Source: Nitrospiraceae bacterium
GTDB taxonomy: Bacteria > Nitrospirota > Nitrospiria > Nitrospirales > Nitrospiraceae
DNA: 64,000 bases
Assembly (NCBI GenBank): GCA_050246315.1
Contig: JBFWWG010000010.1
Span: 103,088 to 167,087, forward strand
Direction of reading: 5' to 3'
Shown in pieces: positions 24,701 through 30,700 of the stretch; positions within the stretch are counted from its first letter, which is position 1; every line of letters starts with the position of its first letter. A program made the position numbers.

Positions 24701-27700
24701 GGGACAACATGAACCTTAATCTTGCGCTGATTCTGGCGATAGCGCTCTCTGTAGGTGGATGCACCTCGACCATTCACAAGACATTCACCATCGACAACCG
24801 GCCGGCCGGTAGCGTCAGTCTCGACGCGAAGCAGCGAGTCATTCTTGTTACTGACAAAGGCGGCCCTCGGCATGATGAGCGCATTGTCTGCGCGGAGCCC
24901 AGCCCGGATGCGGTCGTGGGTATCACTGCATCGGCGACGGCAAAAGCCATGGCACCCAACCAGCCGGTCGCGGAACTTTCCGGATCAATGACCGAGGCGC
25001 TGGCTCAACTTGGTCAGCGCACCCAAATGATTCAACTTCTTCGAGACGGCCTCTATAGAGTCTGCGAGGCATACATGAATGGGCTTGTAGACAAGGAGCT
25101 CTATGAGGAAGTCATATATATGTACGATGATTTCGTCGTTACCATTGTCGCGCTGGAGGCATTGGCCAAACAGAGTCCTTCTAGCTCAGTCTCCACTGAC
25201 AAGACGGACGCCAAAACAAACTCGACAACCGACCGAACGATCAAGGAAGTGATCGACACCTACCTTGATCACCAGAAGTGGCTATTCAAGCTGTATTATG
25301 AAAAGGAAAGGCAACGGAAGTGAGCGGCCAGTTATGTGGCAATTCTCTCAAAGCGGCCGATCATGCAAACGAGCTTAATTAGCGATGGAGACCAGATAAC
25401 GAACCGGATTGGCAAACCTCCGGCCGCCAAGATCTTGGCGATCGTGGTTGCACAATTGTTACACAGGAAGTGATAGGATTCTCTATTGCTTTCTGCGTCG
25501 TTAATTAGTCGTTCAATTTCCCGCAAGGCCTCCTCTGGATATTTTGGCACCCACTTGTATGCCATGGTTGCCTGTGACTCCTTCCATCGGGTACTTTTCC
25601 AACTCTGCGCGGACGTACCCATGGGATCATTCGTCACAAGAACGGTGTCTATCTGATCAGGTCGAGGAAACTCCCCTGGCATGTACCCTGGCACAATGGC
25701 GGCCTCTGCCAAACCATAAGACAACGTCCGGCGTCCTGGCTCAAAGCACATCCATTCGCGTGCTGTTCTCTTCACCTTCTCCCAAAATGACTTCTTGCTC
25801 TTTACGGCATCTCTGACGGTTGTAAAAGAGCGAGGCCACCAACCCCAGTAAGCCCGAGTCGAGCCATCGTCCTGTATCGCCAGAGAAACATGTCCATACC
25901 TCAGGCGAGGCAACCGAACGCGACCGGGTGACCTGCGGCGAGCGGGAGCCTCATGCCAATAGTAGATGATAACTGTCATCGGTCTTGTCCACGAGCGACT
26001 GGCCCCCCCATCGATTCAAGCGAAGACAGCCACGTTGTTCATTACTGAACGGATCGCGCAACCACCTACCCAAACCTTCAAAACCAGTCGCTTCATCAAT
26101 CTCCTGGAATGGCAATGTGCTGCTGCAACCGCAACCGTTGAAATCGAGAATGCGCGATGCAAGCTTGTTCGTTGTCTTATCTCCACTAAGGCATCCTTAG
26201 CGACCCGCCTAGTCCATTGCCCGTTCGCTTCGATACTCCTCGTCGACTGCTGATTCTTCCGCAGCGGAGCGGCTGGCGTGGTCTCCATTGCGCGCTGTCA
26301 ATGATCCTTCCAAACTTGTTGGTCCTCTCTTCACAGAAAGGTGGCCTGATTGATCTTCCACTGCGCGCGTCGCGACCCGTTGCAACCGAGAAAGCAACGG
26401 GTCCTCCGGCACCGCCCGCCACATAACAATCTGATCGCCCTTGTGTGCGCGTTGCGCGAGCACAGGAGATCAACAGGCCACCTTCCACTTTCCTATCGTG
26501 CGCCCTCTGCGAGCACAGAGACCATGCCAGCCGCTTCGGCAACTCCAATGCTCCTTCCAAACTTGTTCGTCGCCTTTTCTCGTACGAGCGGCCATCCTTC
26601 AACAAGGCCGTATTGCTATGTCTGTTTTACTCGCTCGGTTACTAGCAGTGTGTTGACAAACCATATGATGAGACTCGAAAGGGAACGACGTCTCAGATCA
26701 CACACGCAGTCTGTGTGCATCGCAGGCTGTTCAGAAAGGCCGTCCAGCAAGGCCGCAGCGAGCGAAGTGGCGAATCGTACTCTCTGCCGTACGTTGAGCC
26801 TCTAAGCGACGCGAGAACGCCGCTGGCGGACTTTGTCAACAGCCTGCTAGAAGGGGCAGCCAGGTTGTCCTTTACTGCGCGCATCGAGCGACCACCGTTT
26901 CATCGTGGGGGCTCTGCGAGCAAGAAGGATGACCTGGCTGCCCCCTCCCCTTCGTCTGCGGCCGTGCATTGTGCGAGCAGCTACAAATGCTCCTTCCAAG
27001 CTTGCTCGTTGTCTTATCACCTAAGAGTAGCCTGGTTTGGTCCTCAACTGCGCACATCGAACGAGCACCGCCCTTGATTCACAAATCTAATCGGTCAGGT
27101 GTGCGCGTTCTGTGAGCACGGGGGACCAACCAGGCTGCTCTCCTATTCCCTCTCCCGTCCATGCATCCGCATGAACAACTCCCAATCAAACGACTTGGGC
27201 GCGAGCGCGTGCAGCGGAATGGCTTCAACCACAGCATGGTCGCGATAGGCCAGCATGCAGCCGATGACATCACCCGGCCGTTCGACCAGCCTGCGGATCG
27301 TCTCATAGGCCAACTGCTGCGCGATAGTTTTGTCCTCCGGCGTCGGCGGGGCGCCGCGCAACGTATGGCCGAGGATCGTGGCCTTCGTGGCGGGCGTGAG
27401 CGGATAGTGCCCATCATGCGAGTGCACCTGCGGCCAGCCGGCGACCTCGCGCGCGACAAACTCAGGCAAGCCGTGCACACCGCCGTCCGGATGGTGGCGA
27501 TGCGGCGTCCGCTCGGCGACGATGAACAGATGGCTCTTGTTCGGCACGCCTAACGAGCGCTTCAAGGTGCCGAGAATCACCTCGTCGATGTAGGCGTCAG
27601 GATCGGGATGTTCATTGACCAGGACGCCTTCCGCTCTGGCCTGATAGGCACAGGCCAGGGCCAGATGCCCGGACCCGGCTCCCATGACCTCCACGAAAAA

Positions 27701-30700
27701 CACGCTCCCCATCGCCGAACTCGTCGCCTTCAACGATTCAATCGATTGATCCGCCAATCGAATAGCCGAGTGAAAGCCCAGCGACGTGGTACCGGCCAGA
27801 TTATTGTCGATCGTCCCCGGAATCCCGACGACCTGTACCCCGAAGGTCTCATAGACGGCGCGCGCCCCGCGCAGGCTGCCGTCGCCGCCGAGTACGACCA
27901 GAGCGCCATCCCGTAGGAACGGCTCCAGATGCCGCACCGCCGCCTGCTGCACCTGTTCATCCTTAAAGTCCTCGAACCGGCTACTGCCGATCGGGCTGCT
28001 CGGCCGGCTGCCCAACATGCGCGTATCCTGCTCGGAGATCTTCTCGATCCAGTTGTTGGCCAGTCCGAGAAAGCCGTGCCGCACGAAGTACACTTCCAGT
28101 CCGAACCGATTGCCGGTCACCCGCAGTTCTTTCAGCGCCGCGCCCGCACCCGCGAAGTCTCCGCCCGACACCAGCGCCACGATCCGTTTCACCTGCTGCG
28201 GCTTGAGTGTGACCCGATCCCGTCTCGTGCGTTCCACCGACATCCAGGCTTCCCGCTCCGCCCGATCGCGCTGCGACAGGCCCACGGCCGTGGAGTAGCC
28301 GGAGATCTGGCGGTTCTCATAGGTCAACAACACGACGTTGTCCTGACCTTCTTTGTATTCGCCGAACTCGGTGAAGGCCTCCGCGAACGGACGCGGGTCC
28401 AGAAAGATCATCAAGGCCCGCAAAGTCGAGCTGTGGGTATAGAGACAGGCCACGGTGCCACGATGAGCCTCCGCCAGCCGATGAATGCCGTCGACCACGT
28501 TCACATAGGTGTCAAAAAAGGAGTTGCCGCCCGGATAACAGTAGAGCGGATGCTTGAGCAACGTCTTCGCAACCTTCGCTTCGACCCCGAACGCCTGTGC
28601 CGCCGCCTCCGTTTCCGCCGCCTTTTCAACGCCGGTCGCCCAGCCGAAGTCCTGCGACTCCAAGGCATCCGCCGTCATGGGAGCGGCCGATTCGCCCCGT
28701 CCCGCCGCCAGCGCCGCGGACACTCGCTGATACAACTGCGTCGTGTTCGGGCTTCGGCTCACCAGATGCACGAACGAAGGCGGGTCCAGGTAATTGTGGA
28801 CGTGTAAGTAATCGAACTGCTGCCCGACGACCCCGAGAATTTTCGCCAAGGCCAATCCGACCGCATCCGCCTTGTCCACGCCGCGCCCCGGGTCCAACAC
28901 GTTCGCGAGGCGGCAGCCGACACGATGGGTCTTGCTCTCGACCTGCGAGATGCCGTGCCGCATCGCAAAGAGCAAGGTGCGTTCGGTCAGGTTGCGCGGG
29001 AGGAGCCAGAAACGGTCGTCTCCGAGATCGAGAACGATCCGTCCTTCCGCCAGTTGCGGGGTGAGTTGCGCGCGGGCCACGATCGCGACTGGACGCCGGA
29101 TCGGCGGCTTTTGCACACGCCCGATGGCGGCCCGGTAGAGCGGCGTCAGGCGGCCCTCTGAGACCAGCTTGTTCCAGGCCGCGTAAAAGACCAGTTCATC
29201 GCCGGCGCAGCCGTTATGAATGAGGGCCTGCCTGGCCGCACGATAGGCACCGGCATCGGCCATCCCGGTTACGGCAAGCTCCACGAAAGACAGGATGCCC
29301 TGTTCCGCGGCCGAAACGAGGCCGGCACGATCGGGAACCCCTGAGAGCGGGCCTGGAAGCGCAGCCTCACCGATACGAGGCAGGCGGCTCAGGGTTTCGC
29401 CGTAGGCCAACAGCGATTCCACCGTGACAAAGCCGAGGTTGTCCATCTTGGCTGCCATGGCTCGATGAGAAGCTAGAAGCGCGACGCCGAGAGGGAGATA
29501 TCCGCCCGCACCCAGGCCTTCTGGAACTCCGCCTCCGCTGCCGCGGCCTCCTTCGTTTTCCGTTGAGCATCGAGGCTTTGCTTCAACCCGAACAGGGCCC
29601 AGCCGTTATGCGGGTGCTGCGTGAGATCGAGACGATAGACCTGCTCCGCTTCTGCCGGCCGCTTCGCCTGCAAAAGGACGGCGCCCAGCGAATGACGCAC
29701 CGGAATGTGCCACAGGGGCGGCTCATAGTAACGCAGGGCATCCTCCAGTTTCGCCGCGCCGCTCAAGATCGTGACAGCCTCATCATATTGCCCCTGGCGC
29801 GCCGCGATTTCGCCCGCCAGAACCCCCTCGGCGATTCGGGTCAAATCCACCACCCGGCTGATGCCGATCGTCCGGTCCTCCGGCAACGAGCCGGCCAAGT
29901 CGACCAGAGCCTGATTCTCCTTTTGCGCCTCGTCGAAGAGTCCCGTGGCTGCGAATGCCATGCCGCGGGCATAGTGCGCAATCGCCGTCGTATAGGTAAG
30001 CTCGGCCGGTGGTTTGGGCATCGTCAGGATCTCCTCCCACTGTCCGAACCGCACCAGCGAGAACAACAGCGAGGGAGTGAACTCTTCCAGCGCCGGCACT
30101 TGTTTCGCCGCCTCATACGGCACCAAGGTGTGAAGGTCGCGCGCGGCCTTGATCGCCTCCTTGCTGCGCCCCTCCATCGTCAAGGCCGACCAGAGAAAGT
30201 GCACGTTGTGAGGATAGTAGCCCATCGGATAGATGCCGGTGAGATGGCGATGCGCGAGATAATCGTGATCCACAGACACCGCGTGGACATTCTGCTCCGC
30301 CGCTTCCTTGTACATGCCCAGCCGAAGGTAGATGTGTCCCGGCATGTGGACCAGATGCCCGGCCCCGGGCATCAACGACGGCAAGCGCTTGGCGCAGGAG
30401 AGCGCTCGTTCCGGCTTCAACGAAGCCTCGACCGCATGAATGTAATAGTGACAGGCGCCCGGATGGTCGGGATTCAGCGTCAACGCCCGCTCCAACGTCG
30501 AAACAATTTCGTTGGCATGGCCTTTGGGCTGTCCCTCCGGCGTCCAATAGTCCCAGGGCTGGCGAACCATCATCGCTTCGGCGTAGAGGGTGGCGGCATC
30601 GGCATCGTCCATGTATTGCGCCCACAATTTGCCCATCACATCCACATAGACTTCATCCAACACGTCGCGCTTCGCATCGGCTCCGATCTCATAGCGCTCG

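Follow-up and report, generated by a model that had tools for sequence, protein, structure and literature searches.

As judged from its sequence, the protein encoded at 27143..29458 on the minus strand of the window (the whole stretch of 64,000 nucleotides of Nitrospiraceae DNA that was analysed) is a variant of known enzyme parts, in which a phosphatase-type fold is joined to an altered phosphofructokinase and to a cap specific to its family. The gene product is predicted to be a soluble two-module enzyme, and the reading that we favor, with a probability of roughly 0.4, is that of a glycolytic kinase, driven by ATP, that carries its own regulator of phosphatase fold; such a fusion would probably gate the breakdown of sugars. 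No description of the fusion family was found in our literature searches.

Gene and domain architecture

The gene is a single uninterrupted open reading frame of 771 codons followed by a stop, on the minus strand like all the features listed below. From the N-terminus, its product comprises a helical cap specific to the fusion family (residues 1-125, 29084..29458) and a beta-hairpin connector (126-158, 28985..29083), both delimited by the AF2 model and alignment; a domain of histidine-phosphatase (branch 1) fold (159-395, 28274..28984), recognized with Pfam, the AF2 model, Foldseek and VIA-align; a long linker helix (396-422, 28193..28273), which joins the two modules in the AF2 models; and a PfkA-type phosphofructokinase-family domain with an ATP-type signature (423-771, 27146..28192), identified with Pfam, NCBIfam, phmmer and alignment. 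A preliminary description of the locus had proposed this 771-residue frame and a three-part architecture (helical N-domain, phosphatase fold, PfkA-type domain): the former is confirmed by the reading frame, the latter by Pfam and AF2, and the Pfam matches given there (PFK at 425-722, a sub-threshold His_Phos_1 at 254-354) were recovered. The database name of the protein is '6-phosphofructokinase', a label that conceals both the 422-residue N-terminal extension and the altered substrate site. Conservation is reported throughout as counts over 43 aligned full-length homologues, consisting of 39 Nitrospiria rows and 4 divergent forms.

A conserved kinase core with an altered sugar site

The match to Pfam PFK (PF00365) at residues 425-722 (E = 7.4e-56, 190 bits versus a cut-off of 30.9) covers profile positions 1-275 of 277 and, as a whole-domain match, places the C-terminal part of the protein in the PfkA family; an alignment to E. 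coli PfkA runs through all of its last 349 residues (E = 3e-34, 33% identity). In E. coli numbering, SGGD, R72, GGDGS with D103, T125, D127, M169-G170, E222, H249 and R252 are all kept, and are invariant in 43/43 homologues with the exception of T125, which is either T or S; D526 and D551 of the fusion are likewise invariant in 43/43. At the level of sequence, the residues of the ATP/Mg site and the catalytic base (G11, R72, GGDGS with D103, T125, D127) are thus present. The claim that the motif T549-I-D551-N-N553 (27800..27814; TIDND in E. coli) is itself invariant did not survive, since among the Nitrospiria position 549 is T in 27/39 and S in 12/39, and position 552 is N in 26/39 and D in 13/39. 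Overall, conservation within the protein is highest in the PFK domain, with a mean pairwise identity of 0.77 across Nitrospiria. Its signature is GGDG/PGT, versus GGDD/PKT in the genome's own PPi-PFK.

Changes are concentrated at the ligand sites. Of the F6P ligands, some of whose roles we take on the strength of the general literature, H249 and R252 are kept, while R162, R243, R171 and D129 are replaced: in 39/39 Nitrospiria we find D129 to N, as well as R171 to A (both as previously described), R162 to S or T, and R243 to K, and N553, A594, S/T585 and K692 are invariant only in these 39 rows. According to PMC7319554, R162 and R243 reach over from the adjacent subunit to hold the 6-phosphate of F6P. 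The effector-site arginines are also replaced in the 771-residue fusion (R21K, R25V, R54E, R154K). Directly after E649 (E222 in E. coli) the alignment shows a His-rich insertion of about 40 residues (650-690, 27389..27511) with no equivalent in E. coli PfkA, in which H653, H655 and H656 are found in 39/39 and H662 in 38/39 Nitrospiria rows. Scores with the curated NCBIfam PFK models all fall well short of cut-off (TIGR02482, 174 versus 371; NF002872, the best, 180 versus 253); neither by score nor by its F6P ligands does the protein qualify as a strict ATP-dependent 6-phosphofructokinase. The Nitrospinae-type homologue, which carries D129, R162, R243, H249 and R252 together with a canonical SGGDAPGMN, is nearly canonical, and from this we infer that the ancestral fusion contained an ordinary F6P kinase domain.

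In the full-length model the domains are confident, with a pTM of 0.57 and no fixed contact predicted between the two modules. Residues 573-662 had been said to model poorly; here ten-residue blocks over 571-660 have a mean pLDDT of 77-89, and the lowest value, 57, belongs to block 681-690.

The histidine-phosphatase module, cap and hairpin

The Pfam His_Phos_1 (PF00300) match at 254-354 (E = 0.0046, 17.1 bits) is below the cut-off of 21.7, which is cleared by the Nitrospinae-type homologue P0129 (24.7 bits). The AF2 model of residues 1-422, built from a 26-row alignment (pLDDT 90.0, pTM 0.89), predicts with Foldseek and VIA-align that residues 160-396 adopt the histidine phosphatase branch 1 fold. 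The preliminary label of 'FBPase-2/TIGAR fold' holds for the histidine-phosphatase fold as such, but not for any particular closeness to FBPase-2 or TIGAR, which could not be recognized in structure comparisons of the AF2 model; no curated family was matched by this module. As had been noted, the catalytic residues are conserved: R167-H168-G169 (phosphate-pocket Arg and nucleophilic His, 28952..28960) and H342 (second catalytic His, in a THSS motif, 28433..28435) are invariant in 43/43 homologues reaching down to 25% identity, and R167, H168 and H342 are in register with PhoE and dPGM. The rest of the pocket is less orthodox. The position of the pocket Asn (N17 of dPGM) is E174 in a register taken from alignment, and is Glu or Asp in 39/39 Nitrospiria and Asn in 4/4 divergent forms; in registers derived from motif spacing, the second pocket Arg (SPLxR) corresponds to T240, with R in 19/39 Nitrospiria and 4/4 divergent forms, and the usual Glu proton donor to S268, which is Ser in 43/43. 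Pocket Asn, second Arg and Glu donor are therefore all missing from the 771-residue fusion. An SPNT motif is invariant, and mean pairwise identity of the module across Nitrospiria is 0.71. Three other His_Phos_1 genes and a class I FBPase are encoded in the same genome.

The cap, which covers the phosphatase-fold module in the AF2 model, contains helices at residues 13-25, 44-64, 69-83, 88-100 and 105-109, with C84, W95 and N96 invariant in 43/43; residues 1-125 matched nothing in Pfam, had no look-alike in the ESM Atlas and found no counterpart by fold. The hairpin (strands 126-128, 140-146 and 149-154 of the model) is the best-conserved part of the N-terminal half, with a mean pairwise identity of 0.82 across Nitrospiria. 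Stand-alone cap-plus-phosphatase proteins also occur (P0185, 425 residues; P0174, 409 residues), suggesting that the N-terminal module can work alone.

Distribution and genomic context

The fusion family is small: 1.84 billion representative proteins yielded 76 clusters of it. It extends to two other phyla, represented by a Nitrospinae MAG and Candidatus Desulfatibia, in which it is kept at 25-38% identity. The earlier count for Nitrospirota (67/401 genomes positive, 51/75 in the bacterium's own family, broken copies in G213, G216 and G210) was exactly reproduced. In a wider sample of 201 Nitrospiria genomes, 99 were positive and 102 negative; given these absences and the three broken copies, the gene is not essential. 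It is intact in nearly all the positives, being broken, split or cut by a contig end in G213, G216, G210, G421, G448 and G454.

As had been reported, a separate canonical PPi-PFK is encoded on contig C20 of the genome, beside aldolase. It scores 626 bits with NF041103 (cut-off 550), and its gene is divergent to that of the aldolase, which is of class I. The description of the fusion as an 'extra' enzyme is appropriate here and in the 77/99 positive genomes with a further stand-alone PFK-domain match, where the fusion would be redundant if it were merely a PFK, but not in the 18/99 in which it is the sole PFK-domain gene; the latter include G195, G357, G275 and G335, assembled into one to four contigs at 98-99% completeness. 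In 7/7 genomes of family f4 and in f11 genomes, the fusion is accompanied by a short PFK that is fully canonical.

Pyruvate kinase adjoins the fusion gene in 13/21 loci examined and lies within 3 kb of it in at least 44/99 positive Nitrospiria genomes; it is present in 95/99 positive versus 56/102 negative genomes. This adjacency is confined to one order (families f1-f3), and is lacking in the present genome, where the fusion gene has moved away from the pyruvate kinase locus, and in the Nitrospinae and Desulfatibia loci. Upstream, 14 nt away, the reading frame of a 581-residue TPR protein (29473..31218, minus strand) is probably co-transcribed with the fusion gene here; it is no conserved partner, since none of the 20 other loci compared has it alongside. 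At the level of library listings, RNA libraries of four studies contain at least half of the sampled words of the fusion gene, which is apparently transcribed.

Proposed function and alternatives

In soils, waters and wastewater plants, nitrite is oxidised mainly by Nitrospira. Because these bacteria fix CO2 through the reverse TCA cycle, their carbon flow is normally directed towards sugars. According to PMC8026999, nitrite oxidisers store glycogen and break it down by glycolysis, and the joint presence of pyruvate kinase and PPDK is taken there to keep the two flux directions strictly apart. A conserved fusion of kinase and phosphatase type, apparently transcribed and next to pyruvate kinase in many genomes, is an obvious candidate for a switch that would avoid futile cycling when these organisms turn to burning stored glycogen. 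In the reading that we favor, the fusion would be the ATP-driven kinase by which these CO2-fixing nitrifiers commit sugar phosphates to glycolysis, acting together with pyruvate kinase during glycogen consumption; the module of phosphatase fold would serve as an integral brake or sensor, which may bind a phosphorylated metabolite or remove its phosphate, and which would hold the kinase inactive while growth is autotrophic and gluconeogenic. The invariant kinase core, the ordinary kinase domain inferred for the ancestor, the pyruvate kinase context, the genomes in which the fusion is the sole PFK, the conservation of both modules, transcription and the glycogen physiology of nitrite oxidisers speak for this reading; the altered F6P site, the sub-cut-off NCBIfam scores, redundancy with the further PFK-domain match of 77/99 positive genomes, dispensability, the lack of a modelled contact between modules and the lineage-bound pyruvate kinase context speak against it. 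Alignment shows that both pockets were remodelled together in Nitrospiria, with loss of phosphate-binding side chains, and the preferred substrate may consequently no longer be plain fructose 6-phosphate; alternatively, phosphate binding may be provided in cis by the new His-rich loop that adjoins E222.

The joint change of both pockets would also be expected if they shared a ligand, as in a two-way enzyme of PFK-2/FBPase-2 logic, in which a phosphate placed on a sugar by the kinase is taken off again by the histidine phosphatase (the sugar being fructose 6-phosphate/fructose 1,6-bisphosphate or another sugar bisphosphate), thereby setting the level of a bisphosphate that directs flux or signals, for example as an activator of the neighbouring pyruvate kinase. 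This is a serious but rather unlikely rival: R167, H168 and H342 are invariant down to 25% identity, divergent homologues have the canonical pocket Asn and second Arg, and the ordinary PFKs co-existing in 77/99 genomes fit an extra regulatory role, against which it must be considered that three pocket positions are non-standard (E174, T240, S268), that a class I FBPase is already encoded, and that the fold is not specially close to FBPase-2.

We find it unlikely that the PfkA-type domain of the Nitrospiria is a non-catalytic ligand-binding module regulating an active N-terminal phosphatase, in the manner of the C-terminal half of eukaryotic PFK-1. The replacements D129N, R171A, R162S and R243K, invariant in 39/39, the loss of the former effector-site arginines, the phmmer alignment of TIDNN and MGAG to TVSNN/TISNN and MGG in the second halves of human PFK-1, and the existence of P0185 and P0174 are all consistent with it. 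However, GGDGS, D103, D127, R72, E222, H249 and R252 are invariant, while the eukaryotic regulatory half is without GGDGS and D127; the PFK domain is the best-conserved part of the protein; and the fusion is the sole PFK homologue in 18 genomes that keep pyruvate kinase adjoining. The likeness to that half drawn in the preliminary description therefore extends to D129N and R171A, but not to GGDGS and D127.

A more speculative and distinctly improbable idea is that of an independently arisen bacterial counterpart of PFK-2/FBPase-2, built from different parts, whose remodelled kinase and phosphatase would make and destroy a sugar phosphate other than the usual glycolytic intermediate; as a signal, this metabolite would switch the flow of carbon between CO2-fixing gluconeogenesis and glycogen-fuelled glycolysis, for example via the neighbouring pyruvate kinase; a non-standard ligand is suggested by the concerted loss of phosphate-clamping residues from both pockets and by the His-rich loop at the sugar site. 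Finally, the mere tethering of two unrelated activities, a housekeeping enzyme from a different pathway (such as phosphoserine phosphatase or phosphoglycerate mutase) and a plain PFK, would agree with the missing inter-module contact, but is made very improbable by retention of the fusion in nearly all 99 positive Nitrospiria genomes and in two other phyla, by the divergence of both pockets in the same lineage, by the failure of the phosphatase-fold module to match a curated family, and by the genome's three other His_Phos_1 genes.

Comparison with known systems

With E. coli PfkA (1PFK/10OJ; PF00365) the fusion shares the end-to-end alignment of its C-terminal 349 residues, with the ATP/Mg site and D127 in register; it differs in its 422-residue N-terminal extension, in D129N, R162S, R171A and R243K, in the replaced effector-site arginines, and in the insert of about 40 residues after E222. 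The regulatory C-terminal half of eukaryotic PFK-1 resembles the fusion in having Asn in place of D129 and something other than Arg in place of R171, but it retains neither GGDGS nor D127 and is preceded by a catalytic PfkA half, whereas a single PF00365 stretch is found here. Similarity in sequence to PhoE (1H2E), CobC (6E4B), phosphoserine phosphatase (4IJ5) and dPGM (1E58/1YFK) is marginal, with a profile E of 0.016 for PhoE; unlike these small branch-1 phosphatases and mutases, the fusion has Ser for the catalytic Glu, Glu/Asp for the pocket Asn, an invariant SPNT and a cap with C84, W95 and N96.

Kinase/histidine-phosphatase enzymes are known from eukaryotes, as PFKFB and PPIP5K/Vip1, and the fusion, if it were a two-way enzyme, would be a bacterial regulatory enzyme of this kind with a separate origin. 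Compared to PFKFB (1BIF, 5HR5), its kinase is PfkA-type rather than a P-loop 6PF2K, for which there is no Pfam match (only PF00365 and PF00300 are found); the domain order is reversed, with the kinase C-terminal; a helical cap is added; and the phosphatase pocket is without the canonical Asn, Glu and, in the 771-residue protein, second Arg. The comparison implies no common origin of the two fusions.

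Architecture and fold of the fusion protein

The gene at positions 27143-29458 of the minus strand, on contig C10 of a 30-contig, 4.39-Mb genome, consists of a single open reading frame of 771 codons. Its product we tentatively interpret (with a probability of about 0.4) as a glycolytic kinase that is driven by ATP and carries a phosphatase-fold regulator of its own. In Pfam the PFK domain is matched over its full length at residues 425-722 (E 7.4e-56), and a His_Phos_1 match at residues 254-354 is below threshold (E 0.0046, 17.1 bits versus a cut-off of 21.7). Every NCBIfam PFK model matches the fusion far under its curated cut-off (at best 180 bits versus 253), and no curated NCBIfam family was found for the phosphatase module and four relatives, the sole match being that of the Nitrospinae form to CobC (E 0.005). 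The second PFK-family gene of the genome, on contig C20, is a PPi-dependent PFK (score 626 versus an equivalog cut-off of 550), which adjoins a class I fructose-bisphosphate aldolase gene in divergent orientation; both the domain limits and this separate PPi-PFK beside aldolase, as claimed in the preliminary description, were thus reproduced. The genome also contains a class I FBPase, and for this reason the idea that the phosphatase module is a missing FBPase was rejected; there are in addition three ordinary His_Phos_1 genes, and GlpX and FBPase_3 were not found in the genome.

The N-terminal part (residues 1-422) was modelled by AlphaFold2 with an alignment of 26 N-terminal regions (one from the window, 20 from genome loci, three from database proteins and two from sequence stretches entered directly), with a mean pLDDT of 90.0 and a pTM of 0.89. 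The model consists of five helices (residues 13-109), a beta-hairpin piece (126-154), an alpha/beta domain that starts at residue 160, and, following this domain, a long helix (396-415). Of the 229 PDB matches that Foldseek gave at E <= 0.001, the leading ones are cofactor-dependent phosphoglycerate mutases, GpgP, PhoE (TMt 0.75) and CobC (TMt 0.77); PFKFB3 and TIGAR rank lower. In a fold comparison in which scores no more than one Z unit apart are considered tied, the values were 17.3 for the phosphoserine phosphatase 4ij5, 17.2 for PhoE, 16.9 for PGAM1, 16.7 for CobC, 15.1 for FBPase-2 (1c7z), 14.8 for both 3lg2 and SixA, and 12.9 for TIGAR. The alpha/beta domain of the model thus has a generic branch-1 histidine phosphatase fold, not specially close to either FBPase-2 or TIGAR. 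The link at the level of sequence is marginal: the family profile reaches PhoE at E 0.016, with the RHG and THSS motifs in register, and an ESM Atlas feature search likewise yields His_Phos_1 clusters (score 0.93). For the helical cap there was no match in Pfam, no usable match in an ESM Atlas search with residues 1-158, and no partner in a wide fold search, the list of which was filled by phosphatase-domain matches.

Conservation of the phosphatase pocket

A full-length alignment of 43 homologues (39 from the class Nitrospiria and four divergent ones) was used to study the conservation of both modules. R167, H168, G169, H342, S175, S236-P-N-T239, S268, E282 and E370 are invariant in all 43 sequences, and so are the cap residues C84, W95 and N96. 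Residue 174, which aligns with the phosphate-binding Asn N17 of E. coli dPGM, is Glu or Asp in 39/39 Nitrospiria rows and Asn in 4/4 divergent rows. Residue 240, which from the spacing of the motif would be the position of the second pocket Arg of 'SPLxR', is Thr in the fusion; in the Nitrospiria rows (n = 39) it is R in 19, T in 13, K in 4, S in 2 and H in 1, and in the divergent rows it is R in 4/4. By the same type of reasoning the invariant S268 would occupy the position of the Glu proton donor (E-x-x-x-G-x-x-x-G). The nucleophile and its partners are thus retained in a phosphatase pocket that is otherwise non-standard. Such a pattern would suit an unusual phosphatase just as well as a domain that senses phosphate. 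The retained nucleophile also agrees with the possibility that the protein is a true two-way kinase/phosphatase, which we regard as rather unlikely.

The kinase domain and its histidine-rich insertion

The kinase domain was aligned with E. coli PfkA (K-12 record). Residue numbers follow the literature convention (UniProt number minus one). The features kept with respect to E. coli PfkA are SGGD (G11), R72-F73, GGDGS (D103), P-G-T125-I-D127, M169-G170, E187, E222, H249 and R252. Altered in 39/39 Nitrospiria rows are D129 (to N), R162 (to S or T), R171 (to A) and R243 (to K), and the fusion likewise lacks the arginines of the former effector site (R21K, R25V, R54E, R154K). According to PMC7319554, the 6-phosphate of fructose 6-phosphate is bound by R162 and R243 of the neighbouring subunit, with H249 and R252. 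The motif TIDNN, described earlier as invariant, is less strictly conserved, as position 549 is T or S and position 552 is N or D.

An insertion of ~40 residues (positions 27389-27511, minus strand) directly follows E222, the sugar-site Glu of this domain. It opens with T-P-H-R-H-H-P-D-G-G-V-H-G (TPHRHHPDGGVHG...), and its four histidines are retained in 38-39 of the 39 Nitrospiria rows; the His-rich run is absent in the Nitrospinae and Desulfatibia forms. The insertion might serve to bind a metal, or to bind phosphate at a newly gained site. The substitutions in the kinase domain would be in line with a pseudo-kinase that acts as a sensor and regulates an active phosphatase; this has to be set against the invariance of the kinase catalytic core, and we consider it improbable.

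The kinase domain is modelled with reasonable confidence in the full-length prediction, built on 43 aligned rows, with pLDDT of 77-89 in the blocks across residues 571-660 and the weakest block at 681-690 (57); the poor modelling of residues 573-662 reported in the preliminary description did not recur. The overall pTM is only 0.57, so the model assigns the two modules no fixed position relative to each other.

Family breadth and divergent forms

When 1.84 billion cluster representatives were searched exhaustively by HMMER with residues 1-420, no more than 76 clusters, mostly fragments, reached E <= 0.001. A word-indexed search gave 440 proteins, the best 120 of which are all 63-87% identical, and mostly ~770-800 aa long with some partial records; where a name is given, it is '6-phosphofructokinase' (from Nitrospira, Nitrospiraceae or Candidatus Manganitrophus), except for two 'hypothetical protein'. 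The closest database relative of the fusion has 91% identity. More distant are P0129 (794 aa, 38% identity), whose cluster includes a 'Nitrospinae bacterium' MAG protein, and P0163 of Candidatus Desulfatibia (785 aa, 29%), while P0174 (409 aa, with RHA in place of RHG) and P0185 (425 aa) are stand-alone cap-plus-phosphatase proteins. A scan of the genome collection with one narrow peptide pattern gave two loci, on Nitrospinae and Desulfatibia contigs, the census of phyla being that of the HMMER search. The question of occurrence outside Nitrospirota, left open in the preliminary description, is therefore answered: the fusion is present there, rarely. The Nitrospinae and Desulfatibia neighbourhoods are uninformative (Sel1, solute-binding protein, MMPL, SOS genes, PAS kinase).

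The Nitrospinae type keeps D129, R162, R243, H249, R252 and SGGDAPGMN, and is without R171 only; the Desulfatibia type keeps D129 and R171, and both keep the pocket Asn and the second Arg of the phosphatase fold. Since these distant forms are nearer to canonical than the Nitrospira forms, it is the Nitrospiria lineage that remodelled both pockets, under strong constraint. The lack of a fixed arrangement in the full-length model would suit two independent activities that are merely tethered; set beside the remodelling of both pockets in one lineage, this explanation seems very doubtful to us. Within Nitrospiria the cap has a mean pairwise identity of 0.52, the hairpin one of 0.82, the phosphatase domain one of 0.71 and the kinase domain one of 0.77, and this conservation excludes gene decay.

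Distribution in Nitrospirota and association with pyruvate kinase

The N-terminal region was found in 67 of 401 genomes of the phylum, all in one class and 51 of them among the 75 of its own family, exactly as counted before, and the broken copies in G213, G216 and G210 were seen again. In genome G454 the cap-plus-phosphatase region (C1:3679005-3680255) lies within an open frame of 482 aa only, and the G421 gene is divided between two contigs; either case may be one more broken or split copy, or an artefact of assembly.

With denser sampling of the class, 99 of 201 genomes have the fusion region. The sole recurrent neighbour in 21 loci compared gene by gene is pyruvate kinase (PF00224 and PF02887), which is adjacent in 13 of the 21, mostly divergently transcribed. 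At least 44 of the 99 positives (37 in family f1, 7 in families f2/f3) have a pyruvate kinase match no more than 3 kb from the fusion, a minimum, as a further 62 matches to pyruvate kinase are beyond those listed, with coordinates compared by hand and G369 taken from the 21-locus comparison; in six further genomes the distance is 8-23 kb. Pyruvate kinase is present in 95/99 fusion-positive versus 56/102 fusion-negative genomes, a contrast much of which is due to genus g15 (27 genomes), relatives not being independent. In this genus, of family f2, all 27 sampled genomes (those listed are of 2.1-2.7 Mb, mostly single-contig) are without fusion, PFK domain and pyruvate kinase, which implies an upper pathway that serves gluconeogenesis alone. 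In three of the 21 loci (L034, L035, L039) a HAD-family hydrolase gene (PF13419) stands one or two genes past pyruvate kinase and might encode a further phosphatase for sugar phosphates in this neighbourhood.

Any PFK domain is found in 144 of the 201 genomes, and the PPi-PFK type in 71, including 55 of the 99 positives. At least two PFK-domain matches occur in 77 positives, and in 7/7 genomes of family f4 and in those of f11 they include a short PFK of canonical type (E about 1e-100). The intact fusion is the sole PFK-domain match in 18 of the 99 (G140, G195, G222, G252, G357, G367, G249, G275, G335, G369, G385, G171, G401, G402, G407, G427, G435, G452), and among the matches listed, which do not include G140 and G401, the match was confirmed to be the fusion itself for 16 of the 18. 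In three fusion-negative Nitrospiraceae genomes (G265, G327, G183) the PPi-dependent PFK, too, is split or interrupted by an in-frame TGA; in some lineages, it seems, every phosphofructokinase is being lost.

In the genome studied here the fusion and pyruvate kinase are not neighbours. On contig C1 the pyruvate kinase locus (L056, 6337-8589) is flanked as it is in relatives, by a ribonuclease-domain gene to one side and by a conserved unknown together with two M16 peptidases to the other, and the slot that holds the fusion in relatives is an empty gap of ~350 bp: the fusion gene has been relocated, intact, to C10. There a TPR gene (29473-31218, minus strand; 581 aa, with a hydrophobic N-terminal stretch as read from the translation) ends 14 nt before the start of the fusion; a search of the gap gave no promoter-like site, so that the pair is probably co-transcribed, in this genome only. 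No carbohydrate gene was found among the neighbours in the window (TPR, GT2, RidA, PilZ, ECF sigma factor). RNA-library contigs contain much of the gene: in runs of four studies its listed word share is 0.58-0.74, a figure to be read with the reservation that an RNA library may contain DNA.

Discussion

Domain architecture, folds, residue pattern, distribution and the pyruvate kinase link are established here; any activity is inferred. We favour an ATP-driven glycolytic kinase with a phosphatase-fold regulator for four reasons: the invariance of the catalytic core of the kinase, an ancestral form that is an ordinary PFK, the association of the gene with pyruvate kinase, and its being the only PFK in 18 genomes. 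Such a role would also fit the need of glycogen-storing autotrophs to separate glycolysis from gluconeogenesis (PMC8026999). The main difficulty is the loss of R162, R243, R171 and D129, which would either be offset by the His-rich loop or reflect a change of substrate.

The two folds and their families are already known. Our search, which covered a library of open-access papers, found none describing the fusion, its cap, the coupled remodelling of both pockets or the His-rich insert. The genome's own PPi-PFK differs from the fusion in that it keeps R162, R171 and R243 and has GGDD/PKT, whereas the fusion has the ATP-type GGDG/PGT. A likeness to the regulatory half of eukaryotic PFK-1 had also been proposed, and it holds in part: TIDNN resembles the TVSNN/TISNN of that half, but the latter has lost GGDGS, whereas the kinase domain of the fusion keeps both GGDGS and D127.
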